NCBI RefSeq assembly: GCF_050320075.1
Contig: NZ_CP190018.1
Length of the DNA stretch: 64,000 nucleotides
Strand: one strand, 5' to 3'
Source: Escherichia coli
GTDB taxonomy: Bacteria; Pseudomonadota; Gammaproteobacteria; Enterobacterales; Enterobacteriaceae
Within the stretch, counting starts at the first letter, position 1. Each line of letters opens with the position of its first letter. The translations under genes and the position numbers were made by a program. The notes beneath the pieces are model-generated. The model was not told the origin of the DNA, made no database searches, and saw nothing but the letters and a program-made list of their open reading frames with translations. Shown piece by piece: positions 1 to 19,657 of the stretch.

Positions 1-922
1 CCTGAATGAAACAGAGCAGCAACGTTCCCCATAAGGCCATCGTCAGGTAGGGGCTTATACCGAGAATATTGAAGCCGCTTTCAATAATTTGCAGAAGAAA
101 CAGCGCCAGCACCATACCAATTATCCGCCCGCTGCCGCCGTCCGGATTAACCCCGCCGAGTACTGCCGCGAGGATTGACACCAGCAAGTACGATTCGCCA
201 TAAGAGGCCTTAGCCGAGTTGAGTTTCGACATCATCAAAAATGCCGCTACCGCACAAAGCAAGGCGGAAATGACATAAACCCAAATCAGCACCCGACGAG
301 TGTTAATGCCGGAGTAAAGTGTTGCTCGTTCGTTAGAACCAATCAGATAAATGGATTTACCGAGCGGCGTTTTCTCCAGCAATATCCACAGCCCCAGCGC
401 CACTGCGGCAAACAACCACATCGGTAGCGGAATACCGAACCACTGTGCATGATTCAACCACAGCACCCATGAGGGATAATTGGCAATGGCGCTACCGCCT
501 GTCACCAGAATATTTACCCCTTTGAGCAACGTCATCATCCCGAGTGTTGCAAGAATTGGCGACACTCGAATACCAGCAATCAATACGCCGTTACATAAAC
601 CGATTATCACCGCCGCGCCAGCGCCCGCCAGCAGCGTAGCGACAACCGTAGCAATACCCGGTGGATACTGAGTCGCCACCCACGCCATCACCAGTGAACA
701 GGCGTTAGCAGTGGCTATAATTGACAAGTTAATGCCACCGCAAAGCATGGTCACCGCCATAGCCAACGCCAGAATGCCCAGCACGGGCATTTGCGAAGCG
801 ACGGACTGGAAATTACTTATCGACCAGAAAATCTCCGGCATAGTAATGCTGAACGCGGCAACAGTTAGCACCAGCAGGCCGATCAAGTAAAACTCAACGT
901 TATTACGCCACGATTTTTTCAT
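1..922 (-). CDS. Sugar ABC transporter permease (second permease, 3' part runs off the window start)
   Basis: Hand translation of the minus strand from ATG at 920-922 gives MKKSWRNNVEFYLIGLLVLTVAAF... with multiple hydrophobic helices, open to position 1. Its start overlaps the stop of the upstream permease (ATGA). Confidence 0.6.
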   Translation of the reverse strand, partial: MKKSWRNNVEFYLIGLLVLTVAAFSITMPEIFWSISNFQSVASQMPVLGILALAMAVTMLCGGINLSIIATANACSLVMAWVATQYPPGIATVVATLLAGAGAAVIIGLCNGVLIAGIRVSPILATLGMMTLLKGVNILVTGGSAIANYPSWVLWLNHAQWFGIPLPMWLFAAVALGLWILLEKTPLGKSIYLIGSNERATLYSGINTRRVLIWVYVISALLCAVAAFLMMSKLNSAKASYGESYLLVSILAAVLGGVNPDGGSGRIIGMVLALFLLQIIESGFNILGISPYLTMALWGTLLLCFIQ

Positions 923-1890
923 AGCAGACTCCGGTTCTGATGCTGACTCCACGCCGTGGCGCTAATGCTGGCAACGATGATGATGCCGGTGATCAATGTT
1001 TGCCAGTAAGACGAGACTCCCAATAAATTTAGCCCGTTTTGCATCACTGCCAACAACACCACGCCGAGCAAAGTACCGGTTAACGTGCCGCGCCCGCCGA
1101 GCAAACTAGTGCCGCCAAGCACCACCGCAGCCAGTACTGTCAGCTCATAACCCAGAAGAGAATCGGGGGCGACAGTCATCACCGTCCACGACTGCACTAC
1201 ACCCGCAGCGCCAGACATCAATCCCATATAGCCGTAGACGAAAAGTTGCAGTTTCAGCACGCTAAAGCCGATGCGACTGGCGGATTCACGGTTCCCGCCA
1301 AGGGCATAAATTTTGCGCCCTACACTGGTGAAATTCATGATAAACGCTGTCAGCAGCACCACCGTAATCATGGCGATCAGCGGCAGACCAAGGCCATAGT
1401 CATAGCCGTCAGCATCGGTGTACTTGAACAACATTCCCCCCTGCTCAAACCACGGCGGAAAGTCGTACAGCCACACACCTTTACTCAACCATAACAGCAG
1501 GCCATAGAAAATATTCAGCGTCGAAATGGTGATGATGATAGACGGCACCCGTAGGCGATTAACCAGTAAGGCGTTAATTAAGCCAAGTAAAATGCCGATG
1601 CCGCCCGCCAGTGCAAACGCAACAGCAAAGTTGCCACCAATTTTTTGCAGCAGCAGCACCATGCCGTATTGCGCAATGATGGTCATTGCCGGAAACGAAA
1701 TATCAATCCCACCGGAAATTAACACCACAAACAAACCACAGGCGAGAATAGTCAACATGGCATAGTTATTGGCGAGATCGTACAAATTACCGAATGTCAG
1801 AAACTCGTCGCTGCGCCAGGCAAGGCCAACAAACAGCACCACAATCAGTAATGCCAGCCAGAATTCATGGCGTTTTTTCAGTTCAGCCAT
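919..1890 (-). CDS. Sugar ABC transporter permease (RbsC/LsrC-like), 323 aa
   Basis: ORF-track protein is strongly hydrophobic and multi-helical with the typical permease core. It overlaps the ATPase stop by 8 nt, consistent with an operon. Confidence 0.75.
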   Translation of the reverse strand: MAELKKRHEFWLALLIVVLFVGLAWRSDEFLTFGNLYDLANNYAMLTILACGLFVVLISGGIDISFPAMTIIAQYGMVLLLQKIGGNFAVAFALAGGIGILLGLINALLVNRLRVPSIIITISTLNIFYGLLLWLSKGVWLYDFPPWFEQGGMLFKYTDADGYDYGLGLPLIAMITVVLLTAFIMNFTSVGRKIYALGGNRESASRIGFSVLKLQLFVYGYMGLMSGAAGVVQSWTVMTVAPDSLLGYELTVLAAVVLGGTSLLGGRGTLTGTLLGVVLLAVMQNGLNLLGVSSYWQTLITGIIIVASISATAWSQHQNRSLL

Positions 1891-3382
1891 TTACCACCTC
1901 CGCAATCCTGGCCTGAGAACTGCTGTCAGGCAGGAAGCTATGGGTGATCTGACCTTTTTGCATTACCAAAATCCGGTGGCTTTGATACCACGCTTCTTCA
2001 ATTTCATCGCAGATCATCAATACCGCAATGCCATGAGCCGCCAGATCGCTGATAATGCCGTATATTCCTGCTTTGTTGGCGATATCAACACCGATAGTCG
2101 GGCTATCGAGAATCAACAGTCGTGGCCCAATCGCCAGCCATTTGGCGATCGATACTCGCTGCGCGTTACCCCCAGAAAGCGTATTCACCGGGAGATGTGG
2201 GTCAGAGACTTTGATGGTCAATGCCTTGATTAGCCTGTCCACCAGGTCACGCACTTTAGCTTCACTCAGAAAGCCGAAGCGATCTTTTACCTTGTGAAAA
2301 ACAGTGCTAATGATGTTGTCTTCAATAGATTGCGCCATCACCAAACCGCGCGACATGCGATCTTCCGAAACATAACCAATACCGTGGCGGATGGCGTCCT
2401 GGTTACTATGCAGTGTAACCAGCTGGCCGTTGATGAGGATCTCGCCAGCATCCGGTCGGGTCATACCAAACAGACTCAGACATAATTCCGTGCGCCCCGC
2501 ACCAAGCAGGCCAACAATCGACACCACTTCGCCCGCTTCCACCCGCAAGTTAATATTTTGATATTCCCCATGACGACTTAAATTACGCACCTCCAGCACT
2601 GGGATGCTGGATTTTCCCTGCCACAACTCTCGCACCTGATATTCAAACTCCTGGCCGGTCATCAGGAAACCGAGTTGTTTTGTGGTCATCTCTGCAGCCG
2701 GAAAGGTCCCGACCAGCTCACCATCTTTCAGCACTGAAATACGGTCGGAAACTTCCATCACTTCTTCCAGACGATGACTGACGAAGACCACGCAGATCCC
2801 GCGTTCCCGCAATTGATGCACCACCTGTAATAACCCTTGCACTTCCTGATGGGTCAGCGAAGCGGTTGGTTCATCCATCACGATCAACCGTGCGTCCTGC
2901 GCCAGTGCACGGCAAATTGCCACCAGCTGACAGCGGGCAATTGAAAGCTCAGAAACGAGCGTATCCAGTGGCAATGTGACGTTAATACTGGTCATTGCCG
3001 CCTGCGCCACCTCACGCAGACGACGGCGGTTAACAAACAGACCGTGGTGATAGTGATTCACGGCGATATTCTCCCAGACACTCAGGTTAGGAAATAAAGA
3101 GAGGTCCTGATAAATCACCTGAATCCCCTGCGCCACCGAAGCGGCGGGTGTCAGCTTTGACCAGTTTTTCCCACCAAGCGTAATTTCCGCTCCCTCATCC
3201 GGGCGATAAACACCGGACATAATTTTAATCAACGTCGATTTACCACAGCCGTTTTGCCCGGCAAGGCAGTGCACCTCACCCGACATAAAGTCGAGAGAAA
3301 CATCGCGCAGCGCTCGCGTGGCATGAAACGTTTTGTTGATATGACGAAGGGAAAGGAAGGTTTCCATAGCATCCCCTGGCAA
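1883..3382 (-). CDS. Sugar ABC transporter ATP-binding protein with duplicated ABC domains, about 494-499 aa
   Basis: Two nucleotide-binding domains are visible: Walker A GQNGCGKST in the N-terminal half, a second P-loop GLLGAGRTE, and signature-like LSGGNAQ. The start may be the internal METFLSL (3367). Confidence 0.8.
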   Translation of the reverse strand: MPGDAMETFLSLRHINKTFHATRALRDVSLDFMSGEVHCLAGQNGCGKSTLIKIMSGVYRPDEGAEITLGGKNWSKLTPAASVAQGIQVIYQDLSLFPNLSVWENIAVNHYHHGLFVNRRRLREVAQAAMTSINVTLPLDTLVSELSIARCQLVAICRALAQDARLIVMDEPTASLTHQEVQGLLQVVHQLRERGICVVFVSHRLEEVMEVSDRISVLKDGELVGTFPAAEMTTKQLGFLMTGQEFEYQVRELWQGKSSIPVLEVRNLSRHGEYQNINLRVEAGEVVSIVGLLGAGRTELCLSLFGMTRPDAGEILINGQLVTLHSNQDAIRHGIGYVSEDRMSRGLVMAQSIEDNIISTVFHKVKDRFGFLSEAKVRDLVDRLIKALTIKVSDPHLPVNTLSGGNAQRVSIAKWLAIGPRLLILDSPTIGVDIANKAGIYGIISDLAAHGIAVLMICDEIEEAWYQSHRILVMQKGQITHSFLPDSSSQARIAEVVNG

Positions 3383-3415
3383 TAAGAATCGGGGCTTTCG
3401 CCCCGAAGAAATGGA

Positions 3416-4213
3416 TTAATAAAGTGAGTCGATATTGTCTTTGTTGACCAGTAATACCTTATGGAAACGGATAATTCGCTTATCCATATCTACGTCGGCC
3501 TTACCGAGATTCTCCATTTCTAATCCAGGTTTGATCTCTTCACCCTTCAGCAACGTGCTGGCGACGGCCGCGAGTGCGTAACCTGCAGAGGCCGGATCGT
3601 AAGTAATCCCTTCGGTGATATCACCACTTTTAATCAGTGATGCCGCCTGTGAAGGGATCATCATGCCATAGACTGCGACTTTATTTTTCGCCCGTTTCTC
3701 TTTCACTGCACGTCCCGCGCCAATCGGACCGTTTGAACCAAAGGAGACAACCGCTTTCAAGTCAGGATAGGTTTTCATCAGGTCCAGTGTGGTACGACGT
3801 GAGTCATCCACACTCTCGGCAACCGGCATGCGGCGGGTAACTTCATGCATATCCGGGTAATGCTCTTTCTGGTATTTCACCAGCAAGTCAGCCCATAAGT
3901 TATGCTGCGGCACGGTCAAACTACCCACGTAAATCACATAGCCGCCCTTGCCACCCATGCGTTTCGCCATATGCTCAACATATTCAGCGGCAAATTTTTC
4001 GTTATCAATGATTTCGATATCCCAGTTAGCACTTGGCTGACCGGGGGATTCGTTGGTCAGAACCACAATTCCGGCATCTCGCGCTTTTTTGAATACCGGT
4101 TCCAGCACGTTGGCATCGTTTGGCACAATTGTAATTGCATTAACCTTACGGGCGATTAAATCCTCAATGATTTTAACCTGTTGCGGAGCATCAGTACTTG
4201 AAGGCCCCACCTG
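3416..4213 (-). pseudogene. Periplasmic sugar-binding protein (LsrB/RbsB family), C-terminal fragment cut off by IS150
   Basis: The ORF runs right up to the IS150 left end. The translation continues the N-terminal fragment at 5657..5849 once IS150 and one copy of the CCTG duplication are removed (987 nt, 328 aa). The track start is a GTG created at the junction. Confidence 0.8.
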
Positions 4214-4260
4214 TGTACTGCACCCATTTTGTTGGACGATGAAATGGAATAGCCCCTAAT

Positions 4261-4782
4261 ATGTCAAAGCCAAAATACCCTTTTGAAAAGCGCCTTGAAG
4301 TCGTGAATCACTACTTCACAACTGATGATGGTTACAGGATCATCTCGGCACGTTTTGGTGTCCCCCGAACCCAGGTCAGGACATGGGTTGCCCTCTATGA
4401 AAAACATGGAGAAAAAGGTTTAATTCCCAAACCTAAAGGCGTTAGTGCTGATCCAGAGTTGCGTATTAAGGTCGTGAAAGCTGTGATCGAGCAGCACATG
4501 TCCCTTAATCAGGCTGCTGCTCACTTTATGCTTGCTGGTAGTGGTTCTGTAGCCAGGTGGCTGAAGGTCTATGAAGAGCGCGGAGAAGCTGGTTTACGCG
4601 CGCTCAAGATTGGCACCAAAAGAAACATTGCAATATCAGTTGATCCAGAAAAAGCGGCATCAGCATTGGAGCTGTCAAAAGACCGACGCATTGAGGATCT
4701 TGAAAGGCAAGTTCGATTTCTTGAAACGCGGCTTATGTATCTAAAAAAGCTGAAAGCCTTAGCTCATCCCACGAAAAAGTAA
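4261..4782 (+). CDS. insJ: IS150 OrfA (InsJ), HTH DNA-binding transposase subunit, 173 aa
   Basis: Protein MSKPKYPFEKRLEVVNHYFTTDDGYRIISARFGVPRTQVRTWV... is recognised as IS150 InsJ. The A AAA AAG frameshift heptamer lies at 4743-4749 near its 3' end. Confidence 0.9.
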   Translation: MSKPKYPFEKRLEVVNHYFTTDDGYRIISARFGVPRTQVRTWVALYEKHGEKGLIPKPKGVSADPELRIKVVKAVIEQHMSLNQAAAHFMLAGSGSVARWLKVYEERGEAGLRALKIGTKRNIAISVDPEKAASALELSKDRRIEDLERQVRFLETRLMYLKKLKALAHPTKK

Positions 4783-5630
4783 AAGTACTCAACGAGCTAA
4801 GGCAGTTTTATCCTCTTGATGAGCTTCTCAGGGCTGCGGAGATACCGCGCAGTACGTTTTATTACCATCTAAAGGCTCTCAGCAAGCCTGACAAGTATGC
4901 GGACGTTAAAAAGCGTATTGGTGAGATTTATCACGAGAATAGAGGCCGATACGGATACCGTAGGGTAACGCTGTCTCTTCATCGAGAAGGGAAACAGATT
5001 AACCATAAAGCTGTTCAGCGCCTGATGGGAACCCTCTCACTTAAAGCAGCGATTAAGGTCAAGCGATACCGCTCTTACAGAGGAGAGGTAGGGCAAACCG
5101 CCCCTAATGTTCTCCAAAGAGATTTCAAGGCTACGCGGCCAAACGAGAAGTGGGTTACCGATGTTACTGAATTTGTAGTCAATGGGCGCAAGCTGTATTT
5201 GTCTCCAGTAATAGATCTCTTCAACAACGAAGTTATTTCTTACAGCCTTTCGGAAAGACCAGTGATGAACATGGTTGAGAATATGCTCGATCAGGCATTC
5301 AAAAAGCTTAATCCTCACGAGCATCCTGTTCTGCACTCTGACCAGGGATGGCAGTATCGTATGAGAAGATATCAAAATATCCTTAAAGAACATGGTATTA
5401 AACAAAGCATGTCCAGAAAAGGCAATTGTCTGGATAATGCTGTGGTGGAGTGTTTCTTTGGAACCTTAAAGTCGGAGTGTTTTTATCTTGATGAGTTCAG
5501 TAATATAAGCGAACTGAAGGATGCTGTTACGGAATATATTGAATACTACAACAGCAGAAGAATTAGCCTGAAATTAAAAGGTCTGACTCCAATTGAATAT
5601 CGGAATCAGACCTATATGCCTCGTGTTTAA
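4743..5630 (+). CDS. insK: IS150 OrfB (InsK) integrase-core reading frame, made as an OrfAB fusion by -1 frameshift
   Basis: The -1 frame is open from the slippery site to 5630 and reads ...[32 protein letters not shown]...DVTEF...HSDQGWQY...LKSE (DDE motif). The track lists only the ATG-initiated part, 5025..5630. Confidence 0.85.
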
Positions 5631-5656
5631 CTGTCCAACTTTTTGGGGTCAGTACA

Positions 5657-5849
5657 CCTGTGAGGCATTAACACCAAAGGCTTTACCCGCCTCGACCACA
5701 CCTTCGCCCATGCGATTAAACCACGGCATACCATCGACTTTAGAGATATTCACCACGACTTTTTCCGCTGCCTGGAGCGGCGCAGAAATTAGCGCAGCGC
5801 CTAATAACAGCGAAGACACCATATTGATAACAAAACGTTTATTCATCAT
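5657..5849 (-). pseudogene. Periplasmic sugar-binding protein (LsrB/RbsB family), N-terminal fragment with signal peptide
   Basis: MMNKRFVINMVSSLLLGAALISAPLQAAEKVVVNISKVDGMPWFNRMGEGVVEAGKAFGVNASQVY: signal peptide followed by an LsrB-like N-terminal motif. It ends at the IS150 right end. Confidence 0.8.
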
Positions 5850-6099
5850 TTCAGCCTCATTGCAGGGTAGTCAGGAAGTGTTCGCCCAAATTAGCGCGCT
5901 GGAGAGAATAAGAATTTTCGAATATTTTTATGCAGAATAAACAGCCCTATTTCAGGCAGCTATTAAAAATTTGGTTATAAATATGGACAAAACGGGCAGT
6001 AACAATAAGTGTGACAATCATCACGTAAAAAACAGCAAAATAAACAAAATTAGCGATACTTTATGTTTGTGAGCTTATTTCGCGTAGAAAAATAGTTAT

Positions 6100-6510
6100 C
6101 TACACAACGTCAATAAGGGCATATTCTTCAAAGATAACGTCCATTTCTGGTGAATAGCATCCTTCTGTCTGGAAAAAACGACGGTGTTCATTACGCCAAT
6201 ATTCAAGACTGAGGTCACCTTCACCTTCCTTACGGGCAAGCTCTGCGGTGACATCAGAAAAGCGCAGTAAATGCAGGCCAATCACTCTGATAACACAGAC
6301 AGGCTCACCACGGCTATTTCCTACTATCTTATACTCACCAATCATCGGAAATGCGTTGTCTTCAATACATCCCGCCAGCGAACCACAGGAAGCTGTTTTA
6401 ACACCTGTCGCAATCAACGTTGCGAGGTGATCGGCCAACGCTGCTGAATCGCCAAAAGTACAAAAGGAAGCATGGGGATATTTTTGTGAGATTTTTTCTT
6501 TTATGGTCAT
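6100..6510 (-). CDS. ASCH-domain (PUA-like) protein, about 136 aa
   Basis: The ORF resembles small ASCH proteins such as YqfB (LIATGVKTASCGS ... GEPVCVIRVIG ... TAELARKEG). Start assumed at internal MTIKEKIS; the track start is 6543. Confidence 0.45.
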   Translation of the reverse strand: MTIKEKISQKYPHASFCTFGDSAALADHLATLIATGVKTASCGSLAGCIEDNAFPMIGEYKIVGNSRGEPVCVIRVIGLHLLRFSDVTAELARKEGEGDLSLEYWRNEHRRFFQTEGCYSPEMDVIFEEYALIDVV

Positions 6511-6807
6511 GAGAATATTTTCGCGATTACGGAAAAAAATCACATCTTAATTACTGTTGATAACCATCAGCAAGAGGATCATTGGTTTTTCTATGTTTAA
6601 TCTTTTTTATCCGAAGCCGGTCACATTTATGGCTTGATAAATACCTTTGTTAAAACTCACTTTTGTGTATTTCTCTCAAATAATCCCCTGGAAATTATGC
6701 CGGGAGATTATAAAGTTCAGGATCATTCATTAGCAAACCATTGCTGCCCCACTCCCTGGGGCTTTAAATCTCTTACGATTCACCATTGCAGGCGTTTCAA
6801 ATGCGTA

Positions 6808-8190
6808 TCAACCTGCCACACTCCCCCACACCAGTTGCCCTTTATGGAACGTCGCCGTTCTCGGCGAGATACGCGCCACCGCCTCGGCGGAACAGGAGGC
6901 GTCCACCAGCACAAAGCTGGCATCATCCTGCGCTTTGGGCCACACGCGCTCGCCTTTTTCGTTGAGCGGCAATACATCGCCAGTGGCTAAAAACAGCGAG
7001 CGGGAGAGGTTCTGTTCGTTAGGACGAATATAGAGCTGCGCGTACAGATTGGCTTTTTCCAGCATGTCGCCCAGGCCGTAAGGCGACCAGTGGTCGATAA
7101 CGCTGTCGGTGCCGGTCATCACTTTTACGCCTTTGTCGTGCAACTGTTTGAGCGGCATATGCAGCGTGCCAATCGGCACCGTCGAGGCGATAGAAATTTG
7201 CTGCGCCGCCATCCGGTGCGCCAGTTCATCTACCTGTTGCTCATTGAGCGTTGCCAGCGCAAAGGCGTGGCTGATGGTCAGCTTGCCCTTCAGTTGCGGC
7301 GTTTTCTCCACCGTTTCAACCATATAATTGATGGCTGCCACGCCTGCCGGAGTGGTTTCGTGCAGGTGAATATCAACGCCTTTGTCGTAGTCCAGCGCAA
7401 TCTGGAACATGGTGTCGAGGGATTTTTCCATCGCGCCATCAACACTGGTCGGGTCCAGCCCGCCGACGTAATGCGCCCCCGCCTGCATCGCTTCGCGCAT
7501 TAAGGGTTCTGATTTCGACAGCAGCAAACCGTGCTGCGGGAAGGCGACAATTTCACACTCGAAGCCCGCCTGACGTCGCGCCAGAACCGCCTGCAAATTT
7601 TGCAGATTTTTCAGGCCGGAAACCGGTTCGATATTGCAGTGGCTGCGGGAAATGGTAGTGCCTTTCGACTGCAATAAATCAATCAGTTTTTCCGCCCTTT
7701 CCTGAGTGTACGGTTGCAACTCCGGCAGCATTTTCTGCTCGAGTTTGATCATGTCCTGGATGGTGGTGCATGCCGGACGATTGAGCGAGCGCCACGGCCC
7801 GCCGTAGAAGGTTTTGTCGAGATGAATATGCATGTCGCGGGTGGTGGGCAGCATCAGCTTACCGCCAGCGTCATAGTGCGGCAGCGTGGCGTCCGGATGC
7901 TGATTGTTCTCGCGCAGTGCAACAATTTTGCCGTTCTGAATTTCCACAGTCTGGCGCGCCGTGCGGGTCTGCACCGCCACGCCATTTTCGTAGTCAAAAC
8001 CGGTTTCCAGCAACACGTTGTCGAGATAGTAGTGCGGGTCAGTGATTTTCATGGTGTTATTCGCGTCGCAGTGGGTTGTGCCAGAGACTGCCGCATGGGC
8101 GAGCGGCACAGAGGTACCAAACAGCGCGGCGGCGGTGACCATCTTACCGCTCTGGCTCAGAAACTCACGGCGGCTATTGCTTTCTTTCAT
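6808..8190 (-). CDS. yahJ: Metal-dependent amidohydrolase/deaminase with a twin-arginine signal peptide, 460 aa
   Basis: N-terminus MKESNSRREFLSQSGKMVTAAALFGTSVPLAHA has an SRRxFL Tat motif and an AxA cleavage site. The body carries amidohydrolase-like HxH and metal-ligand motifs. Length and context match YahJ. Confidence 0.75.
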   Translation of the reverse strand: MKESNSRREFLSQSGKMVTAAALFGTSVPLAHAAVSGTTHCDANNTMKITDPHYYLDNVLLETGFDYENGVAVQTRTARQTVEIQNGKIVALRENNQHPDATLPHYDAGGKLMLPTTRDMHIHLDKTFYGGPWRSLNRPACTTIQDMIKLEQKMLPELQPYTQERAEKLIDLLQSKGTTISRSHCNIEPVSGLKNLQNLQAVLARRQAGFECEIVAFPQHGLLLSKSEPLMREAMQAGAHYVGGLDPTSVDGAMEKSLDTMFQIALDYDKGVDIHLHETTPAGVAAINYMVETVEKTPQLKGKLTISHAFALATLNEQQVDELAHRMAAQQISIASTVPIGTLHMPLKQLHDKGVKVMTGTDSVIDHWSPYGLGDMLEKANLYAQLYIRPNEQNLSRSLFLATGDVLPLNEKGERVWPKAQDDASFVLVDASCSAEAVARISPRTATFHKGQLVWGSVAG

Positions 8191-8199
8191 CTTACGTCC

Positions 8200-9150
8200 T
8201 TACGTTTTAATAATATGGGTGCCCGTTTCACCGCGCAGCGCCGCAAGCAGGCATTCCGGCGTGGTGATAATCACTTCTTTGCCGCCCTGTTCCAGGAACG
8301 TCAGGCTGGCGATGATTTTTGGCAACATGCTGCCAGGCGGAAAATGCCCTTCCTGCATATAGCGGGTCATGGTGGCAATATCCACCCGATCGAGCGCCTG
8401 CTGCTGCGGTTTGCCAAAGTGAATACACACTTTTTCGACGCCAGTGGTGATCACCAGAATGTCGGCGTGAATTTCACGGGCCAATAGCGCGGTAGAGAGA
8501 TCTTTGTCGATAACCGCGTCCACGCTTTGGTAATCCCCCGCTTCACTGCACACCACCGGAATTCCGCCACCGCCCGCGCCAATCACCACAAAGCCTTGTT
8601 GGATCAGCGCCTTAATGGCAGGTGCTTCTACAATACGTTGCGGTTCCGGCGAGGCGACCACGCGGCGATAGCCCCGTCCGGCATCTTCAACAAAACGCCA
8701 GTCAGGGTTTGCCTTTTGTAATTCGTCACGCTGGCTGTCACTAAAGAATGCGCCGATGGGCTTGGTGGGATGAGCAAAACCCGGATCGTTTTTATCCACT
8801 TCCACCTGAGTCACCACGGTGACGGCTTTTTTCTCGCCATGACGCGCCAGTCGGTTGTTCAGCGCCTGTTGGATCAAGTAGCCAATGCCGCCTTGCGTAT
8901 CCGCCACACAGTTCGCCAGCGGCGTTAAGGGCAGCCCTTCGCGCTCGTGGGCAATCTCCGCGCGGCGTAAATCCAAACCGACCTGCGGTCCGTTGCCGTG
9001 GGTCAGCACAATGTCGTAATCGGAAGCCAGCATTTCCAGCACCGTATCGGCGACGGCTTTCACCGCCTCCGCCTGATGCTCAATCGACTGGCTGGCGTTA
9101 TCTTTGATAATGCTGTTGCCACCAATGGCAACGACCACAAGTTCTTTCAT
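8200..9150 (-). CDS. yahI: Carbamate kinase, 316 aa
   Basis: MKELVVVAIGGNSII... and the amino-acid-kinase fold are typical of carbamate kinase. Start taken at the internal ATG, giving 316 aa; the track ORF extends to 9267. Confidence 0.8.
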   Translation of the reverse strand: MKELVVVAIGGNSIIKDNASQSIEHQAEAVKAVADTVLEMLASDYDIVLTHGNGPQVGLDLRRAEIAHEREGLPLTPLANCVADTQGGIGYLIQQALNNRLARHGEKKAVTVVTQVEVDKNDPGFAHPTKPIGAFFSDSQRDELQKANPDWRFVEDAGRGYRRVVASPEPQRIVEAPAIKALIQQGFVVIGAGGGGIPVVCSEAGDYQSVDAVIDKDLSTALLAREIHADILVITTGVEKVCIHFGKPQQQALDRVDIATMTRYMQEGHFPPGSMLPKIIASLTFLEQGGKEVIITTPECLLAALRGETGTHIIKT

Positions 9151-9245
9151 ATTGTTATGTCCGCTACAGAGGGTGATGGGGTTATGAGAGTGAGGTTGCC
9201 CCTCTCCCCAGAAGGAAGAAGGGATCGTAAGGTGCAGTTGGAGGG

Positions 9246-10664
9246 TCAGACGCCGTAACGTTCGCACCAGCCAAGAATGGCTTTCTCGAAGCAGGCGAAT
9301 GGTGGATGCACAATGCCCGCGCCAATCATGCCAACGCCCGCATCTTTATGGGCAATGGCGGTGTTGATCACCGGCAGAATGCCGCTACTGCCCACGCGGG
9401 TGATGTCGATTGCCGACGGCACGCCCATAAAACCGAGCAGCGGAATGGTGACGTTGGGGTTTTCACCGAGAGTGATTTCGCGCATCTGACGGGAGAAATC
9501 GATAGCCTCTTCCACCGTGCCGCCCACCAGCGCGACGATCGCGGGCGCGGTAGCCATAGCAAATCCACCAATGCCGTAGGTTTCGGTGATGGCGCTGTCG
9601 CCAATATCCAGCCCCGAATCTTCCGGCTTATAACCGGCAAACATCGGGCCGATCACCTGCTGCGCCGGACCGGTAAACCATTGCCCCGGTAATCCGCTGA
9701 CCCGCAGGCCGAACTCGACGCCGTTACGCGCCATCGTGGTGACCACGGTGCTGTATTCGATGCCGTGCGCCGCATCCATCGCCGCTTTACACATCGCCAT
9801 CCACGTCGGGCCGGAGAAGTAGTCGCTGCTGGCGACAAACTCAAACACTTCGCGCTGTTGCTCGACGGAATAACCTGCCTGAATAATCCCCGGCGTCAGC
9901 GCCTGAATCAGCAGCGTCGTCCCGGCGTTATTACGGTTATGGCATTCATCGCCCATATGCAGCGCCTGCGCCAGCATTAAGCGCAGATCGATTTCGCCGA
10001 TAATTTTCATCGCGTCGCGCAGCATTGGCCCCTGCACATCGCGCATCCAGTTGAGGCGGTCAATCACGCTCTGGTCGTTAGCGCCCATACGCAAAATCTT
10101 CGCCATCTGCTCGCTCATATTGGTGTAAGCGATGTTGCCGTAGGTTTTGTTTTTTACGATGTGCATAAACATCGAGGCCGAGGTAACACCTGCCATCGAT
10201 CCCACACAGTCGTGTTCATGGCACGGCGAGAAGGTGATCTCCCCGGAGGCCGCCAAGTCAGCCGCCTCGTCGAGATCTTTCGCCAGCCCTTCGAACACCA
10301 GCGCCCCGGTGACCGCGCCTTTCATTGCGCCGCACATTTTTTCCCAGGTCACTGGCGGCCCGGCGTGAAGAATGGTTTTCGGCGTCATTCCCGGCACCAC
10401 GTTAATCGCCTGATCAAAACCAATCAGCACCGGATGCGACTGGATAATGCGCTCCAGCGCCTGCTGGTTAGCGGCGGCGATTTTGTCTGCCAGCGGCGAA
10501 TCGGCAATGTTATCCAGCGCCTGCACCACCTGCATATTGCCCTGCCCCGGCGGCGTCCAGTCGAGTTGGGTCACTTCTACATGCTGCTTTTTCAAATCAT
10601 CGCTAAACATGGCGATGCCGACGTTAATAACGTTCAACGGTTGGCTAAACAGTGACTGGCTCAT
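9246..10664 (-). CDS. yahG: DUF1116-family protein (YlbE-like), 472 aa
   Basis: Length and position match yahG. The stop overlaps the yahF start by 1 nt, suggesting translational coupling. Confidence 0.7.
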   Translation of the reverse strand: MSQSLFSQPLNVINVGIAMFSDDLKKQHVEVTQLDWTPPGQGNMQVVQALDNIADSPLADKIAAANQQALERIIQSHPVLIGFDQAINVVPGMTPKTILHAGPPVTWEKMCGAMKGAVTGALVFEGLAKDLDEAADLAASGEITFSPCHEHDCVGSMAGVTSASMFMHIVKNKTYGNIAYTNMSEQMAKILRMGANDQSVIDRLNWMRDVQGPMLRDAMKIIGEIDLRLMLAQALHMGDECHNRNNAGTTLLIQALTPGIIQAGYSVEQQREVFEFVASSDYFSGPTWMAMCKAAMDAAHGIEYSTVVTTMARNGVEFGLRVSGLPGQWFTGPAQQVIGPMFAGYKPEDSGLDIGDSAITETYGIGGFAMATAPAIVALVGGTVEEAIDFSRQMREITLGENPNVTIPLLGFMGVPSAIDITRVGSSGILPVINTAIAHKDAGVGMIGAGIVHPPFACFEKAILGWCERYGV

Positions 10665-12211
10665 CAGGCTTCCTCCCCTTTGCAGATAAATTCACGCGCC
10701 AGCAATCCGGTATTGGTGCTGCTGCTTGCCAGAATTACCCCAGCATCAAGCAGCATCTGGCTTTGTTGTTCTAACGATGGCGTATCGAGATCGGTACCCA
10801 GCACATAGGCGAGAATGATCAACTCGCGCCCTTCGGCAGCGGCGATCGCTTTCGCCTCTTTGATCGCCTCGATGGTGGAACCGACCGGATCTTCATGCGA
10901 TCCAAACCCGAGCACAAAATCCATCACGATCACCGCCACTTCTGGATCGTGCGCCTCTTCGATCAAGCGGCTGATACGGTTGGTGGGGTCAATCATTGGA
11001 TGCGGCTTGCCGTTGGTGAAGTCGTCATCGCCAAAGTCGAGGAAGGTGTGTTTGATGCTGCGGTTGATATCTTGCAGGCGGAATTCAGGATCGGGCTGAA
11101 TGTTGCTGTAGACATCGCCATGTTTTTCCATCACCGCGAACATGGTTTCGTCACACAGCGTACCGCCGCAGAACAGGCCACGAATGTATTTCTGTTGCGG
11201 CTTCAGGCGAGCGCGCACGTCAGCAATCAATGGCTGGTTCAGGGTATGCAGATCGAGATGTTCCTGTTTCACGCCGGAGAGCATCACCGCTTTCAGCGCC
11301 GCTTCTTTGCTGCCGCGGGCAAACTTTAGCCCCTGCTCATCCACTGGCGTTTCGCCACGACCGAGGAAGCAGACCACCACCGGCTTGCGGCAGGCGCGTG
11401 CGCGTTCCAGCACTTTGCGGGCCACCGCAGGCGCAGGCGGTTTGGAGATAAGCACAATAATTTCAGTTTGCGGATCGTTTTCCAGCATCCCGATGGCGTC
11501 GAGCATCATCAGGCCGCCGATTTTCTCGCTCAGGTCGCGCCCGCCGGTGCCGATCAGTTGCGAAACGCCGCCGCCAAATTCATGGATACGGACGCTCAGC
11601 TCCTGGCTACCGGTGCCGGATGCGCCAACAATGCCGATGTTGCCGCGACGCACGGCGTTACCAAAGCAGAGCGCCGCGCCGTTGATAATCGCCGTACCGC
11701 AGTCTGGCCCCATCATCAGCAGCCCTTTTTCGTGGGCCAACTGTTTGAGCGCCAGTTCATCTTCAACTGAGACGTTATCGGAAAACAGCATCACGTTAAG
11801 ATCGTTTTGCAGCGCCTGACGCGCTTCGCGAGCGGCAAACAGACCGTTGACCGAAATCACCGCCAGGTTACTTTCCGGGATATGCTTTTTGGCGCTGGCA
11901 ATAGTGGCGTAACGCGCCTCGTGCGGGCCGCTTTGCGCTTTGCTGTTGAACAGTTCTTCAATCTCCACCAGCAACTGCTCGTTGTCTGCGCCCGATTTAC
12001 CATTGATGACAATCATCAGGTCACCGTTTTTCGCCTGCTCCAGCTCCGGCGTCAGCAGCCCTAAATTCTTCAGCACGCCTTTGTTCATTTCGGTCGCCAT
12101 CGCCACAAATGCCTGCTCGACGCCGTCAAGTTTATTTGCACGCGTGGAGATAGACATCAGCGAGACAGAATCAAAATAGGTATTCGGTTTAATGACTATT
12201 TTAACTGACAT
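10664..12211 (-). CDS. yahF: FdrA-like protein with a CoA-ligase/succinyl-CoA-synthetase-alpha-like fold, 515 aa
   Basis: Rossmann/CoA-binding style motifs (GIVGASGTGSQ, GxGG). Length and context match YahF, the FdrA paralogue. Confidence 0.7.
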   Translation of the reverse strand: MSVKIVIKPNTYFDSVSLMSISTRANKLDGVEQAFVAMATEMNKGVLKNLGLLTPELEQAKNGDLMIVINGKSGADNEQLLVEIEELFNSKAQSGPHEARYATIASAKKHIPESNLAVISVNGLFAAREARQALQNDLNVMLFSDNVSVEDELALKQLAHEKGLLMMGPDCGTAIINGAALCFGNAVRRGNIGIVGASGTGSQELSVRIHEFGGGVSQLIGTGGRDLSEKIGGLMMLDAIGMLENDPQTEIIVLISKPPAPAVARKVLERARACRKPVVVCFLGRGETPVDEQGLKFARGSKEAALKAVMLSGVKQEHLDLHTLNQPLIADVRARLKPQQKYIRGLFCGGTLCDETMFAVMEKHGDVYSNIQPDPEFRLQDINRSIKHTFLDFGDDDFTNGKPHPMIDPTNRISRLIEEAHDPEVAVIVMDFVLGFGSHEDPVGSTIEAIKEAKAIAAAEGRELIILAYVLGTDLDTPSLEQQSQMLLDAGVILASSSTNTGLLAREFICKGEEA

Positions 12212-13064
12212 AATTCCCTCCGTAGGTTTGGCTCAGCGCACAACCATCGGCCATGCCATACAGCATGTCGCAGCCGGAACTGGAGCCAATATGTTTAATT
12301 TTTTCTATTGCCTGAGTTGCGTTCCCAGGGATGTCATAAATAATGTTATGAATAAAACGATGAATATCTTCCCGGCAGCGTTGTTGTAATGCGGCTTCCA
12401 GCGTTATGGCACTTAATAACGTGGTATTATTTCTGCCGCGTTGCAGACCGAGATAAAATTCCTCTTTGTATTTTTCCGCCGGATGCCCAGGAATAAATAA
12501 AATAAGCGCCAGACCTGTTAAATAATCGTCGGCTGATGGCGTAAGGCCAATCCCTAAGCCCATCATACTGGCGACCGCTGAGGCGATATTTTGTTTATCG
12601 TTTACGGCCTGAATAACTGCCCGTCGTTTAATATGTAATTCTTTATTTAACGCCTGATAAAACGGATTATCGCCGCAATAATTAAACAGGGTTTCATTTT
12701 CCCCCAGGTGCTGATGAATAATGTCATGCCACTGTTGCCAGGCGATAAGGTGAAAATTCACAGCGGTCATTTGCAAGGTTGGGGACAGCCAACGCCGACA
12801 ACGACTCATCTCTATATGAAGATGTTGACCAACCGTAATGCCTTGATCGTCAAACTGAACCTTATCACCATGCCGGAACAGACCATCAAAGTGAGTGAGT
12901 GCCAACCGACAACTGTTTGGCGCATTGTCGTACTCTTCACAAAGCAGCGTCAGCAACTGCTGGCGGGCCGGAAGTGCGATATTTACCGCTCTGGCAAAGA
13001 CCTGTTCAACCTGTCCTTGCCCCCGCTGCGCCAGAAAATCAGCATCCGCAGTTAGCGCCCACAC
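12201..13064 (-). CDS. yahE: DUF2877-family protein (YlbF-like), 287 aa
   Basis: ORF overlaps the yahF start by 11 nt. Length and context match yahE. Confidence 0.65.
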   Translation of the reverse strand: MWALTADADFLAQRGQGQVEQVFARAVNIALPARQQLLTLLCEEYDNAPNSCRLALTHFDGLFRHGDKVQFDDQGITVGQHLHIEMSRCRRWLSPTLQMTAVNFHLIAWQQWHDIIHQHLGENETLFNYCGDNPFYQALNKELHIKRRAVIQAVNDKQNIASAVASMMGLGIGLTPSADDYLTGLALILFIPGHPAEKYKEEFYLGLQRGRNNTTLLSAITLEAALQQRCREDIHRFIHNIIYDIPGNATQAIEKIKHIGSSSGCDMLYGMADGCALSQTYGGNYVS

Positions 13065-13103
13065 ACACCGTCTTTCTGGTGTGTTGATAGCAAGCCTCCC
13101 GGT

Positions 13104-13709
13104 TTATGCACCTGCGGCCATCAGTAACTGCGCAATCTCTTCAAAGCCTCGTTCCCGCGCCAGTTCCAGCGGCGTTTTGCCATATTTATCCGTCATGTGC
13201 GGGCTGGCACCGTGTTCCAGCAATAACTGGACAATCGCCTGCTGTTTAATCCCGCCATCATTAAGCACAATTGCTTCCAGTAGCGGCGTCCAGCCAACAT
13301 GGTTGGTCTGGTTAACGTTAATCTCCGTATGCGCCAAAAGCTCTTTTACAATACTTAAATGGCCTTTTTCACAGGCAGGCGTCAGGCCGACACCGCCAAA
13401 ACGGGTGACGCAATTAAGATCGGGTTTAGCCGGTAAAATAATCCGTAACAGGGTTAAATCGCCGGTCAGGCAGCTAATTAAAAAAGGATTTGAACATATT
13501 TGATCTTGCTTATTAATATCTGCTCCGGCATCAATTAATGCCTGAACGCAAGCATATTGCTGATATAAACTTGCCAGCGTAATTGCCGTTTTCCCCTGAC
13601 GATCGCAGGTATTAATATCGACACCCAGCGCAAGGCAGGTTTTTACTTTATCGATATCACCCTGTTGCGCAGCCAATAAATAGTCGGCAGGTAGATTTTT
13701 TATAGTCAT
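13104..13709 (-). CDS. yahD: Ankyrin-repeat protein, 201 aa
   Basis: Repeated ankyrin-like units (G.TALH/LA...G....V..LL..GAD.N) are visible in the translation. Length matches YahD. Confidence 0.75.
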   Translation of the reverse strand: MTIKNLPADYLLAAQQGDIDKVKTCLALGVDINTCDRQGKTAITLASLYQQYACVQALIDAGADINKQDQICSNPFLISCLTGDLTLLRIILPAKPDLNCVTRFGGVGLTPACEKGHLSIVKELLAHTEINVNQTNHVGWTPLLEAIVLNDGGIKQQAIVQLLLEHGASPHMTDKYGKTPLELARERGFEEIAQLLMAAGA

Positions 13710-13966
13710 TCACATTCCCCTGGTTTTTGTGGCTGTTTTCGATGAATTGAGAATAGCAACGATAATCTGATAAAAGAACCCGCTTAAATTTAATTCGCCG
13801 TATTTCGCCTTTTTGTTGAATGATGTTCAACAATCTTTTCGCAGTGTGCGGTAGTGCAATATTTGTTTCTTTGACCCGATACCCTTTCACTCAATCAGGT
13901 TTTATTTCTCTATAGTCTGCACATGTAAGAGTAGCTTTCGTCCATGTCTAACCAGAGGGGAACAAG

Positions 13967-14464
13967 ATGAACGGACTCACGGCAACGGGTGTCACCGTCG
14001 GTATTTGTGCAGGGCTTTGGCAGTTAGTGTCTTCACATGTTGGGCTCTCTCAGGGATGGGAATTATTAGGAACCATTGGCTTCGTCGCCTTTTGCAGTTT
14101 TTATGCCGCAGGCGGCGGTAAAACGGGGTTTATCAGAAGCCTGGCGGTTAATTATTCCGGGATGGTGTGGGCGTTTTTCGCCGCGCTGGCTGCCGGTTGG
14201 CTGGCCTCGGTGAGTGGATTGTCCACGTTCTGGGCGAGCGTGATTATGACTGTACCCTTCTCGGCGGTAGTGGTCTGGCAAGGACGTTTCGGTTTATTGT
14301 CTTTTATTCCCGGAGGCTTTCTCGGCATGACGCTATTTTTTGCCAGCGGGATGAACTGGACGGTGACATTACTGGGTTTTCTGGCGGGTAACTGCGTGGG
14401 GATAATTTCAGAATATGGCGGACAAAAATTAAGCGAAGCGACGACTAAACGCGACGGGTATTAA
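13967..14464 (+). CDS. yahC: Inner-membrane protein, 165 aa
   Basis: Highly hydrophobic ORF with several predicted helices, transcribed divergently from yahD. Length matches YahC. Confidence 0.65.
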   Translation: MNGLTATGVTVGICAGLWQLVSSHVGLSQGWELLGTIGFVAFCSFYAAGGGKTGFIRSLAVNYSGMVWAFFAALAAGWLASVSGLSTFWASVIMTVPFSAVVVWQGRFGLLSFIPGGFLGMTLFFASGMNWTVTLLGFLAGNCVGIISEYGGQKLSEATTKRDGY

Positions 14465-14555
14465 AAGTTATTCAAAAATGATTATCTATCTTTAACCGAT
14501 ACCTCTACAGTCATGGCTGGAGAAATTCATAGTAGATAATGGCGGGAATGGTTTA

Positions 14556-15488
14556 ATGAACTCAATTTTTACCGAAGAGAATCTGTTGGCATTTACTACC
14601 GCTGCGCGTTTTGGCAGCTTCAGTAAAGCCGCAGAAGAGTTGGGTTTAACCACTTCCGCCATTAGCTACACCATCAAGCGAATGGAAACAGGGCTGGATG
14701 TGGTGCTGTTCACTCGCAGTACCCGAAGCATTGAGTTAACGGAGTCCGGGCGTTATTTTTTCCGCAAAGCTACCGACCTGCTGAATGATTTTCACGCCAT
14801 CAAACGCAGCATCGATACTATTTCGCAGGGTATAGAAGCACGGGTGCGCATTTGTATTAACCAACTGCTTTATACGCCCAAACACACCGCACGCTTATTA
14901 CAGGTACTGAAAAAGCAGTTTCCTACCTGCCAGATTACCGTCACCACCGAAGTGTATAACGGCGTCTGGGATGCGATTATTAATAATCAGGCGAATATCG
15001 CTATCGGCGCACCCGACACGCTGCTGGACGGTGGCGGCATTGATTACACGGAGATTGGCGCGATTCGCTGGGCTTTTGCCATCGCCCCGGATCACCCGTT
15101 AGCCTTTGTGCCGGAGCCGATCGCCGAAAGCCAACTGCGTCTCTACCCTAATATCATGGTGGAGGACACCGCACATACGATTAATAAAAAAGTGGGCTGG
15201 TTGCTGCATGGGCAGGAGTCAATTCTGGTGCCAGATTTCAACACCAAATGTCAGTGCCAGATTTTAGGTGAAGGAATTGGTTTTTTGCCGGATTACATGG
15301 TCCGTGAGGCGATGGCGCAATCCCTGCTGGTTACCCGACAAATCCATAATCCGCGCCAGGATTCGCGCATGTTACTGGCGACCCAGCACTCTGCCACCGG
15401 TCAGGTGACGCAGTGGATTAAAAAACAATTTTCGCCAAATGGCATATTAACGGGGATCTATCAGGATTTACTGCATCGGGAGAATTAA
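14556..15488 (+). CDS. yahB: LysR-family transcriptional regulator, 310 aa
   Basis: N-terminal LysR HTH (FTTAARFGSFSKAAEELGLTTSAISYTIKRME) plus a substrate-binding domain. Confidence 0.8.
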   Translation: MNSIFTEENLLAFTTAARFGSFSKAAEELGLTTSAISYTIKRMETGLDVVLFTRSTRSIELTESGRYFFRKATDLLNDFHAIKRSIDTISQGIEARVRICINQLLYTPKHTARLLQVLKKQFPTCQITVTTEVYNGVWDAIINNQANIAIGAPDTLLDGGGIDYTEIGAIRWAFAIAPDHPLAFVPEPIAESQLRLYPNIMVEDTAHTINKKVGWLLHGQESILVPDFNTKCQCQILGEGIGFLPDYMVREAMAQSLLVTRQIHNPRQDSRMLLATQHSATGQVTQWIKKQFSPNGILTGIYQDLLHREN

Positions 15489-15529
15489 TCGCTGCCAACT
15501 TCCCGATGCGCTGTGAATAGCGGTTTACA

Positions 15530-16618
15530 TCAACCACCTGCTTTCATTACCCATTCAGAGATAAATTTATTACCCGGTACTGGCGGAGAGTACAAATAGC
15601 CCTGCAAAAAGTGAACGCCTTTGCCGATCATTAAATCCGCCTGCTCCTGGGTTTCTACCCCTTCCGCCACGATACTCAGACCAGGCTTACGCGCCAGTTC
15701 GACAATATTGTCCACAATATGACCGGATATTTCGTCCACGCTCGCCATTTGCACAAATGACTTATCGATCTTAATAAAATCGACCGGGAACGCCTGCAAG
15801 TAACGATAGGTCGCATAACCCGTACCAAAGTCATCCAGCGCAAAGGTAATGTTGTGCTGATGAAGGCTGTCAAATATCGCTCTGGCTTCTGGCGTTACCG
15901 GAATAGGGTTACGTTCCGTTAGCTCGAGAACCAGTTTGATTTTATCGTTACCTAATTTCTTAACCAGGTTCAGGCATTCTTTTTCAAATCCCGCAGCCAA
16001 AAAACAACCCGCCGAGACGTTGATGCCAATATGGAAATTGTCCGGCAGCAAATGTTTTACCGGCATCAGAATATCCGCAGTCTGTTTCATCAACTGGCGA
16101 GTCATTATGACGATAAGACCAGATGACTCCGCCAGAGGAATAAACTGATCCGGTGGGATAATTCCCGTTTGTGGATGTTCCCAGCGGACAAGCACCTCAC
16201 AGCCCGTCAGTACCCCAGTCTGCGCGCAGAAAACCGGTTGGATCCACGGTTTAAATTCATGGTTTTCCAACGCCAGACTGATGGCTTCAGGCGTGACGAT
16301 ATGGTGATAGTGATTATCATTAATATATTTGTGACTATTATTACCCGTGGCGGATATGATCTCCGGATTGTACTGAAAGAAAATATCCCGCCAGAAAGTA
16401 ATATCGCTCTGAATCCCCAGTTTCTCAAAGAGCTGTTTCTTTTGATGTGAAATGGTCTTTGCACTGCGATTTCTGTACTGTGATATTTCTGTTACAGACA
16501 TTCCCTGCATCAGCAGCTTGAGTAGCAGTCGTTCTTTCTCGGATACGCTACCAGGCAATGACAAATGAACCGTTGTACCGAACTCTTGCAGAAAAACACG
16601 AAAATCACATGAATTCAT
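15530..16618 (-). CDS. pdeL: c-di-GMP phosphodiesterase with N-terminal LuxR-type HTH and C-terminal EAL domain, 362 aa
   Basis: LuxR-type HTH (LLKLLMQGMSVTEISQYRNRSAKTISHQKKQLFEKLG) followed by EAL-domain motifs (ELTER, DDFGTGY). Length matches YahA/PdeL. Confidence 0.85.
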   Translation of the reverse strand: MNSCDFRVFLQEFGTTVHLSLPGSVSEKERLLLKLLMQGMSVTEISQYRNRSAKTISHQKKQLFEKLGIQSDITFWRDIFFQYNPEIISATGNNSHKYINDNHYHHIVTPEAISLALENHEFKPWIQPVFCAQTGVLTGCEVLVRWEHPQTGIIPPDQFIPLAESSGLIVIMTRQLMKQTADILMPVKHLLPDNFHIGINVSAGCFLAAGFEKECLNLVKKLGNDKIKLVLELTERNPIPVTPEARAIFDSLHQHNITFALDDFGTGYATYRYLQAFPVDFIKIDKSFVQMASVDEISGHIVDNIVELARKPGLSIVAEGVETQEQADLMIGKGVHFLQGYLYSPPVPGNKFISEWVMKAGG

Positions 16619-17495
16619 GAACACACCTTTTATCTTTTATCGCTGTTCAGTATGAGTGATTACCTGTGGATTCCTGAGCACACATAAGGGGTAACCATAA
16701 ACATCAGCGATGCCATACGCATAACATCCCACATCACTATCAAAAAGATTATCTTTACCTCTGATGCTCGCTCAAAAACAGTTACGCTAAATACCTTAAA
16801 AAGGTAATCACAAGTCAAACTCAGGAGATAATCACGCAAGAATGCAATATTAAAATTCAGATACTCATTTTTGGTAATAAAGAAGTAGTTGGACTATTTC
16901 AATATTTATAATTTCCCACTACGTATTGACGCCCATTCATGAGTAAAGGCGCATTATATGAATTTAACAATCCAGATCAACTGAAAATACCTCAACCTCA
17001 TAAACACATAGCGTCAACATTCAATGACATAATGAGTAAAGATGTTGGTTATGCATACACGTCATTACTCTATGCCTATCCCTTAACAACCTGCTTTTTA
17101 AGGCTGAATCCATTCAGCAATAGATAGCCAACATTATAACAATGACAATAAAAACAATATTTAAAACAATCAATAAAATATCAGACACAGACAATTAAAC
17201 CTTAAACAACAAACAGTTACATTGATTTTAGTTGATTTGCGCTACGCGTTTCCCATGAATAAAGCGTCATTTCAAATTAGCACCAATATTTACATTAAAT
17301 AAGACTAAGCTTATTGAACATTCACAACAGTCCAAGCGTAGGTTTTGGGCTTCAATAGTTCTTTTCTTTTTTATTATCTGTTGCCTGGCAATCATCAATC
17401 GATACTAAGGGCTTAACTGTACACAGATATAACGTATCAAGAGGTAAGAGAAACCGCGCCATATGCAGACATGGCGCGGTTTTATGCAATAACAA

Positions 17496-19613: not shown

Positions 19614-19657
19614 ACCGCTTTAATAGATAAACAACGCTGATGAATGGAGTGGCGAAA

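Follow-up and report, generated by a model that had tools for sequence, protein, structure and literature searches.

What has become of an accessory sugar importer whose binding-protein gene is interrupted by an insertion sequence, and which importer was it? The question is raised by one end of the window, a 64,000-nucleotide stretch of Escherichia coli contig NZ_CP190018.1, in which a sequence-only reading had recognized a minus-strand operon for a binding protein, a dual-domain ATPase and two permeases, labelled it 'LsrB/RbsB-type', and proposed a recent inactivation by IS150. The reading that we favor, with a probability of about 0.93, is an ordinary natural knockout, in which IS150 has inactivated aauA of the known accessory Aau transporter in one lineage.

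Anatomy of the insertion

A complete IS150 of 1,443 bp, with termini TGTACTG...CAGTACA, lies on the plus strand within the minus-strand aauA and is bracketed by direct repeats of CCTG (Table 1). In silico excision of 4214..5660, the element together with one CCTG copy, fuses the 5' part (from the ATG at 5849 to 5657) to the 3' part (from 4213 to the stop at 3416) in an open reading frame of 987 nt and 328 aa with zero internal stops, and the frame is lost if 0 or 3 extra bases are removed with IS150. These results bear out the earlier description of the element, its duplication and the restored gene. The coordinates given there for the two fragments also stand, although in the truncated product 65 native residues, rather than 64, precede a Tyr and a stop at 5649 within IS150. 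PGAP annotates the 5' and 3' fragments as pseudogenes 'missing C-terminus' and 'missing N-terminus' respectively, and no secondary decay is visible in either, as had been noted.

A natural empty site is provided by E. coli strain 746, in which aauA is uninterrupted and identical to the restored gene. The restored 7,853 bp (positions 1..9300 of the window minus 1,447 bp) is colinear with strain 746 and differs from it by 4 SNPs, 0 of them in aauA. The filled site exceeds the empty one by 1,447 bp (1,443 + 4), and the target-site duplication measured against it is the 4-bp CCTG. IS150 duplicates 3-4 bp of its target, and 4 bp is the upper end of this range; a literature search on the length of the IS150 duplication and on its polar effects settled neither point.

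The ∼1.44-kb element is near-identical to known IS150 and has the orfA/orfB frameshift DDE (rve) transposase of the IS3 family, with profile matches to HTH_28, rve and transpos_IS3 (348 bits). A -1 frameshift heptamer, A AAA AAG, lies at 4743..4749 in the orfA frame, with a stem-loop downstream of it by folding, and the 456-aa fusion is open; PGAP likewise annotates the transposase with a 'programmed frameshift'. This active-looking IS150 would have entered codon 65 of aauA by the copy-out/paste-in route of the IS3 family, duplicating CCTG in doing so.

Table 1. Features of the interrupted aau locus and its surroundings (window coordinates).
Feature	Position	Strand	Remarks
aauD, distal permease	1..922	-	BPD_transp_2, E 1.2e-31; ∼35 nt of 3' end beyond window edge
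aauC, proximal permease, 323 aa	919..1890	-	BPD_transp_2, E 3.6e-34
aauB, fused two-domain ABC ATPase, 494 aa, intact	1883..3367	-	Two ABC_tran stretches
G+C-rich hairpin in aauA-aauB spacer, native intercistronic stem-loop	3389..3406	-	Terminator-like scan match; -15.1 kcal/mol, z -2.5
aauA, 3' fragment	3416..4213	-	Codon 65/66 to stop; without own signal peptide/start context
Target-site duplication copy 1, CCTG	4210..4213
IS150 (IS3 family), antisense to operon	4214..5656	+	orfA 4261..4782; OrfAB fusion to 5630
Perfect 15-bp hairpin then UUUUAAUUU, antisense strand of IS150	5579..5613	-	Terminator-like scan match; -24.6 kcal/mol, z -5.9
aauA, 5' fragment	5657..5849	-	Signal peptide and first ∼38 mature residues
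Target-site duplication copy 2, CCTG	5657..5660
Candidate AraC I1/I2-like half-sites TGCCCGTTTTGTCCATA, TAACCAAATTTTTAATA	5961..5998	-	Direct repeats, 21 bp apart, upstream of aauA
ASCH-domain gene, upstream of aauA	6100..6510	-	PF04266, E 2.5e-21

Identity of the transporter

The operon encodes an accessory sugar ABC importer, as had been claimed, and one of CUT2 type: restored AauA matches the periplasmic binding-protein family Peripla_BP_4 (PF13407; E 4.5e-63, 213.6 bits), the ATPase has two PF00005 stretches and both permeases have PF02653, all above gathering scores. The four-gene arrangement stands, with the qualification that the window ends within the fourth gene; aauD is complete in the source genome, as a 318-aa CDS (WP_000750344.1). 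The aauB start is most likely the ATG at 3367 annotated by PGAP (494 aa) rather than the TTG at 3382, and an Rfam scan of 1..9300 found no RNA family.

By its sequence, the locus is the Aau (AauABCD) L-arabinose/D-ribulose importer of E. coli, an already characterized system encoded in EHEC by Z0415-Z0419 of O-island 17 (Cottam et al. 2024, PMC11127945; 2025, PMC12307932). Aau is induced by AraC and L-arabinose, and AauA binds D-ribulose tightly, with a Kd of ∼2 uM, and L-arabinose weakly (PMC11127945, PMC12307932). Restored AauA is identical at 326/328 positions, over its full length, to the AauA of PDB 9I1M (E 1e-213), and has 6/6 of the D-ribulose contact residues defined for AauA (PMC12307932). 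IS150 splits these contacts 2 + 4, leaving K37 and W43 in the 5' part and E118, H167, E196 and S223 in the 3' part. The operon layout agrees as well: between yahJ and yahK, at the position of O-island 17, genes for a binding protein and a fused ATPase are followed by two for permeases, and the order yahJ-ASCH-aauABCD-yahK is common to O157:H7 (Z1768), with 97.7% nucleotide identity over the locus.

The PGAP/RefSeq name for intact AauA is 'autoinducer 2 ABC transporter substrate-binding protein'. Proteins of LsrB type are expected to have >63% identity to LsrB together with all six AI-2 residues (Pereira et al., via PMC3386761). AauA has 29% identity with E. coli LsrB and keeps only K35 among the contacts K35, D116, D166, Q167, P220 and A222, the five lost positions reading E, Q, H, F and S; its score against NCBIfam NF011937 is 111.1 bits, the equivalog cut-off being 384. 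There is no lsrK, lsrR, lsrF or lsrG near aau, where the neighbors are ASCH, yahJ and yahK, and the real lsr operon sits elsewhere in K-12. RbsB is rejected by NF007936 (45.9 bits against a cut-off of 337, and in the N-terminal third only), as is RhaS by TIGR02637, which is the best NCBIfam match though at 136.9 bits it falls short of its cut-off of 342. Because all three membership tests failed, the label 'LsrB/RbsB-type' holds at the superfamily level only. This has value for annotation: the protein that carries the autoinducer 2 name in RefSeq is AauA, which binds D-ribulose and L-arabinose.

The locus is absent from the yahJ-yahK interval of K-12, in agreement with the earlier reading. K-12 retains 3' scraps of two of the genes, so its loss of aau was by deletion; the ASCH gene, which is part of the segment that K-12 lacks and is present in aau-positive genomes, survives there as its last 50 nt only.

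Distribution and consequences of the interrupted allele

Although aauA is carried by ∼41% of complete E. coli genomes, the filled IS150 junction occurs in 2/5,426 of them, and among 2,215 genomes with the stretch the empty site is present in 2,213. Among draft assemblies, three contigs span IS150 with both junctions and two further contigs have the left junction and end inside the element; the empty site is found in 0/5. All 24 contigs read with the lineage's AauB allele, which is distinguished by the substitution V425I (one SNP relative to strain 746, at 2095), carry the IS150 allele. The clone has been sampled from chicken faeces in China (the strain bearing the window) and from human urine in Burkina Faso (a sister isolate). 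The allele therefore belongs to one clonal lineage and is fixed in a disseminated clone, and the insertion, proposed earlier to be recent, is so in relative terms but is not brand new. We note that the same sublineage has a betI nonsense mutation. A count of the paoB-paoC deletion junction was uninformative, BLAST having joined the flanks over a 394-bp gap in intact genomes, and a literature search on strain YZLc1-3 found no paper.

The product remaining from aauA would be a 66-residue peptide, in which the signal peptide is followed by the initial ∼38 residues of the mature protein, and the 3' part appears promoterless and without an export signal. We infer that functional AauA is not made and, since Aau is binding-protein-dependent, that the importer no longer functions, despite intact aauB, aauC and aauD. 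With aauA split, uptake of D-ribulose and L-arabinose via Aau is predicted to be lost, and with it the Aau-dependent scavenging of D-ribulose with L-arabinose; canonical arabinose use through AraE, AraFGH and AraBAD would be expected to be unaffected.

The candidate AraC half-sites upstream of aauA score 8/10 and 7/10 against TAGCN7TCCATA, where a score of at least 8/10 is expected 0.18 times in the region. An AraC site here is a prediction from the consensus match; Paau is AraC-dependent (PMC11127945). Transcripts from the still-intact arabinose-responsive promoter would run antisense into IS150, where translation would end at 5649 and a strong hairpin and U-run would follow at 5613..5579. 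This hairpin, which 0/200 shuffles match in folding, is likely to be an intrinsic terminator for operon transcripts entering IS150. An untranslated transcript meeting it would probably lower aauBCD expression, and polarity on these genes is thus plausible.

Was the loss of Aau selected, rather than carried along neutrally? It might have been costly, for example, in an extraintestinal or poultry niche, to couple D-ribulose uptake to arabinose. The fixation of the allele across chicken faeces, human urine and 24/24 contigs with the lineage's AauB is compatible with this, yet fixation within a clone requires no selection, and the betI nonsense mutation fits plain drift. A broader form of the idea would make Aau a recurrent target of lineage-specific inactivation, its loss bringing an advantage to strains outside the niche in which EHEC benefits from Aau; besides IS150, both forms would call on the independent null AauB Q87* (TAG) of the O157:H7 EDL933/TUV93-0 lineage and strain Z1768 (PMC11127945) and on the deletion of aau in K-12. 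Against selection for loss, the data examined show a single insertion event among 2,215 carriers and no parallel insertion elsewhere in aau. We regard selection for loss as improbable in this clone, and recurrent advantageous loss as equally doubtful; if true, the clone would be a natural experiment on the costs and benefits of D-ribulose scavenging.

It is very improbable that Aau still works through an outward, antisense promoter in IS150 that drives AauBCD without AraC, the complex using another binding protein or none. The aauB, aauC and aauD ORFs are intact in every clone member examined, but this is equally expected for a young neutral knockout, and CUT2 importers normally depend on their cognate binding protein. 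One promoter-like hexamer pair (5530..5502) does occur downstream of the hairpin on the antisense strand of IS150; the promoter scan as a whole gave 3 hits against 4.2 expected from shuffled sequence, and since these are not above the shuffle it speaks neither for nor against such a promoter, which we keep as a low-probability rival. The transcripts would, moreover, have to cross ∼2.1 kb of untranslated RNA. Finally, misassembly often arises at IS elements, but an artefact of assembly or annotation, such as a mis-joined IS copy, is rejected, since independent assemblies show identical junctions, with the same perfect 4-bp duplication in two complete genomes and no empty site among the five drafts.

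The ordinary knockout of aauA thus makes this lineage a natural aauA null in which the remaining aau genes are undamaged and, set against strain 746, whose AauC (WP_001595373.1) is identical, it could provide a near-isogenic comparison for testing the role of Aau outside EHEC.

Comparison with known systems

No new system or mechanism is revealed by this locus, Aau being already known. The IS150 copy closely resembles that of K-12 (insJ/insK, next to hokA), with which it shares its length of 1,443 bp, its ends, the orfA/orfB layout and the A AAA AAG site; there are 4 substitutions (99.7% identity) and 2 OrfAB amino acid differences, the orfA stop is TAA here and TGA in K-12, and the insertion site is different. 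LsrB is of the same fold class as AauA, Peripla_BP_4, and the lsr and aau operons have a CUT2-type architecture in common. A closer relative is Klebsiella pneumoniae PDB 3D02, which aligns with residues 27-328 (E 4e-188); this long alignment with only scattered substitutions makes it an AauA ortholog in another enterobacterial genus. It is a structural-genomics entry deposited as a 'putative LacI-type transcriptional regulator', a name that gives no ligand or function.

The closest comparison is with the Aau of EHEC, which our strain is not. Relative to O157:H7, the permeases differ by 2-3 substitutions (316/319 residues are identical in AauD) and the ATPase by 4 together with the O157 nonsense codon: AauB is full-length here, with Q87 intact, whereas the EDL933/TUV93-0-type allele is Q87*, and Z1768 has TAG at the same codon. 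The other difference is in aauA, which is split here by IS150, so that the system is a predicted null.

Insertion of IS150 in aauA and its uninterrupted counterpart

The gene encoding the binding protein of the Aau ABC importer, aauA, is split on the minus strand of the window by an element of 1,443 bp (4214..5656) that has the termini TGTACTG/CAGTACA and a copy of CCTG on either side, in agreement with the complete IS150 described in the sequence-only reading. An open reading frame beginning with the ATG at 5849 enters the element and ends at 5649 after 66 codons (65 native codons plus a Tyr), and a second frame picks up at 4213 and runs to a stop at 3416. The gene is thus split, and no full-length secretable binding protein can be encoded; both fragments are already annotated as pseudogenes in RefSeq. 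In silico removal of 4214..5660 restores, as had been proposed, an intact gene of 987 nt and 328 codons whose only stop is the terminal one, and the frame is broken when the element is removed alone or with 3 bp.

A natural empty site is provided by strain 746 (NZ_CP023353.1), a close relative with an uninterrupted aauA that is colinear with 7,853 bp around the site after in silico excision and differs at four positions, none of them within the binding-protein gene. The restored sequence is therefore an allele that exists in nature, and the target-site duplication measures exactly 4 bp. The four differences are all nonsynonymous, although with n = 4 in 7.85 kb this is not significant and too small a sample to interpret; AauB V425I is a conservative substitution.

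The element differs from the K-12 IS150 at four of 1,443 positions and lies antisense to the aau operon. The OrfAB fusion is open (456 aa) and bears an rve domain, folding predicts a 10-bp stem downstream of the slippery heptamer, and this copy looks fully functional.

Features of the aau region of the window
Feature	Position	Remark
CCTG flanking repeats	4210..4213 and 5657..5660	either side of the element
orfA	4261..4782	within IS150
Slippery heptamer A AAA AAG	4743..4749	in frame
aauD, distal permease gene	cut by window start	complete, 318 aa, in source genome
Candidate AraC I1/I2-like half-sites	5998..5961	21 bp apart; promoter region of aauA
AauB V425I	2095	SNP versus strain 746
ASCH E64G	6320	SNP versus strain 746
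YahJ G141C	7770	SNP versus strain 746
YahI P302L	8246	SNP versus strain 746

Distribution and age of the insertion allele

The aauA target stretch is present in 2,215 of 5,426 complete E. coli genomes (41%); the site is empty in 2,213 of these carriers and the filled junction is found in two, YZLc1-3 and Ec-U3. YZLc1-3 (NZ_CP123240.1; chicken faeces, Yangzhou) matches the window at every base over 1..9300 and 9219..59119, and Ec-U3, isolated from human urine in Burkina Faso, is separated from the window over ~49 kb by four substitutions, a small gap and one additional IS1. This near-identity indicates that the strains are clonal and that the insertion was inherited. The additional element in Ec-U3, an IS1A between betT and pdeL (L005:32172-32869) that the window lacks at ~17061-17076, shows that IS activity is ongoing in the clone.

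The index of public assemblies lists the AauB-I425 protein of the lineage in 206 blocks, and the 24 contigs examined, all 24 carrying it, reduce to five places. Each of the five has either the IS150 junction or a contig end 111-127 bp into IS150, and none has an empty site; short-read assemblies typically end inside IS elements. The repeats are perfect, the IS is intact and aauA has zero changes, so the description of a recent event free of secondary decay fits the state of the allele, but the insertion, young as it is, had occurred before this well-sampled clone spread.

Strain 746 shares the paoB-paoC deletion and the ykgL frameshift of the window, and its betI and aauA are intact, which leaves the betI nonsense mutation and aauA::IS150 as the lesions specific to the sublineage. 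The deletion, 394 bp relative to K-12 at window 57226-57235 (paoB from 56458), takes the paoB 3' end and the paoC 5' end with a 10-bp junction overlap and inactivates the periplasmic aldehyde oxidoreductase; since strain 746 has it too, the deletion arose before the IS150 insertion. The gene betI (19658-20245, plus strand), which encodes the choline-glycine betaine operon repressor, is interrupted by a stop at codon 89 beside intact betT, betB and betA, and as this stop is present in Ec-U3 and absent from strain 746 it belongs to the same sublineage as aauA::IS150. The ykgL frameshift (46020-46245, minus strand) is annotated in the source genome and also occurs in Ec-U3. We also note a match to the Rfam IS009 sRNA family (RF02111) at 54546-54746 on the minus strand, between ykgJ and yagU (187.8 bits; gathering score 117).

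Predicted consequences for the importer

ABC importers of this kind depend on their binding protein, and Aau would thus be non-functional even though aauBCD are intact. The insertion would presumably also be polar on aauBCD. Transcripts would leave an unchanged promoter region, translation would stop at 5649, and ~40 nt further on the RNA would reach a hairpin predicted by folding at 5613..5579 (a perfect 15 bp, then UUUUAAUUU; -24.6 kcal/mol, z -5.9), beyond which ~2.1 kb of untranslated RNA would precede aauB. A promoter scan gave three hits against 4.2 in shuffles, which is not above chance, and an outward promoter carried by IS150 is therefore an unsupported alternative of low probability.

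The insertion is real and was correctly read, but it is ordinary, and neither the transporter nor the IS element is new. Its main use lies in correcting the annotation and in offering a natural aauA knockout alongside an almost identical strain in which the locus is intact.

Identity of the transporter and comparison with other Aau loci

Restored AauA matches Pfam Peripla_BP_4 along its whole length (E 4.5e-63); profile searches likewise identify an ATPase with two ABC_tran domains in the following gene and BPD_transp_2 permeases in the two genes beyond. The proposed four-gene operon is thus matched in its families, although its distal gene runs past the window start. The restored protein falls short of the equivalog cut-offs for LsrB (111 bits, cut-off 384), RbsB (46 bits, cut-off 337) and RhaS (137 bits, cut-off 342). 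E. coli LsrB, judged by criteria as in PMC3386761, is 29% identical to restored AauA, which retains one of six AI-2 contacts; the label "LsrB/RbsB-type" is therefore correct only at the level of fold or CUT2, and "autoinducer 2 ABC transporter substrate-binding protein", as RefSeq calls the product, is misleading.

A PDB sequence search returns 9I1M_A, identical at 326 of 328 positions, and the Klebsiella ortholog 3D02. The 9I1M structure is that of AauA from EHEC, where it serves as the binding protein of Aau, the "accessory L-arabinose uptake" system (Z0415-Z0419, O-island 17). Aau is induced only by L-arabinose, via AraC, and full fitness in the mouse gut requires it; the Kd of AauA is 1.98 uM for D-ribulose versus 598 uM for L-arabinose, and imported D-ribulose is phosphorylated by AraB (PMC11127945, PMC12307932). 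All six published ligand contacts are retained in restored AauA, and IS150 parts K37 and W43 from E118, H167, E196 and S223. An ASCH-domain gene (6100-6510, minus strand) is found alongside aauABCD between yahJ and yahK in every genome inspected; the available text of the Aau papers names Z0415-Z0419 alone as the locus (PMC11127945, PMC12307932).

The transporter is absent from K-12 at this position, as the sequence-only reading stated: yahJ and yahK are 376 bp apart in MG1655. This spacer (L003:9509-9885) still contains the 3'-terminal 72 nt of aauD plus a 72-bp stretch that includes the final 50 nt of the ASCH gene; these correspond to window 1-37 and 6078-6149, and 63 bp without a match lie between them. 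ASCH-aauABCD was therefore lost by deletions rather than never acquired, and the remnants are at odds with the locus being simply a horizontally acquired island.

An O157:H7 genome shares the gene order yahJ-ASCH-aauABCD-yahK, and its nucleotide sequence is 97.7% identical. In O157:H7 strain Z1768, aauB (L007:4250-5734, equivalent to window 1883-3367) carries a CAG to TAG change at codon 87 (Q87*), which specifies the glutamine of the Q-loop in the first ATP-binding domain; the aauB of the window is intact at this codon. This is an independent natural Aau null, the second, and is already published as the TUV93-0 AauB "premature stop at position 259", that is, Q87* (PMC11127945).
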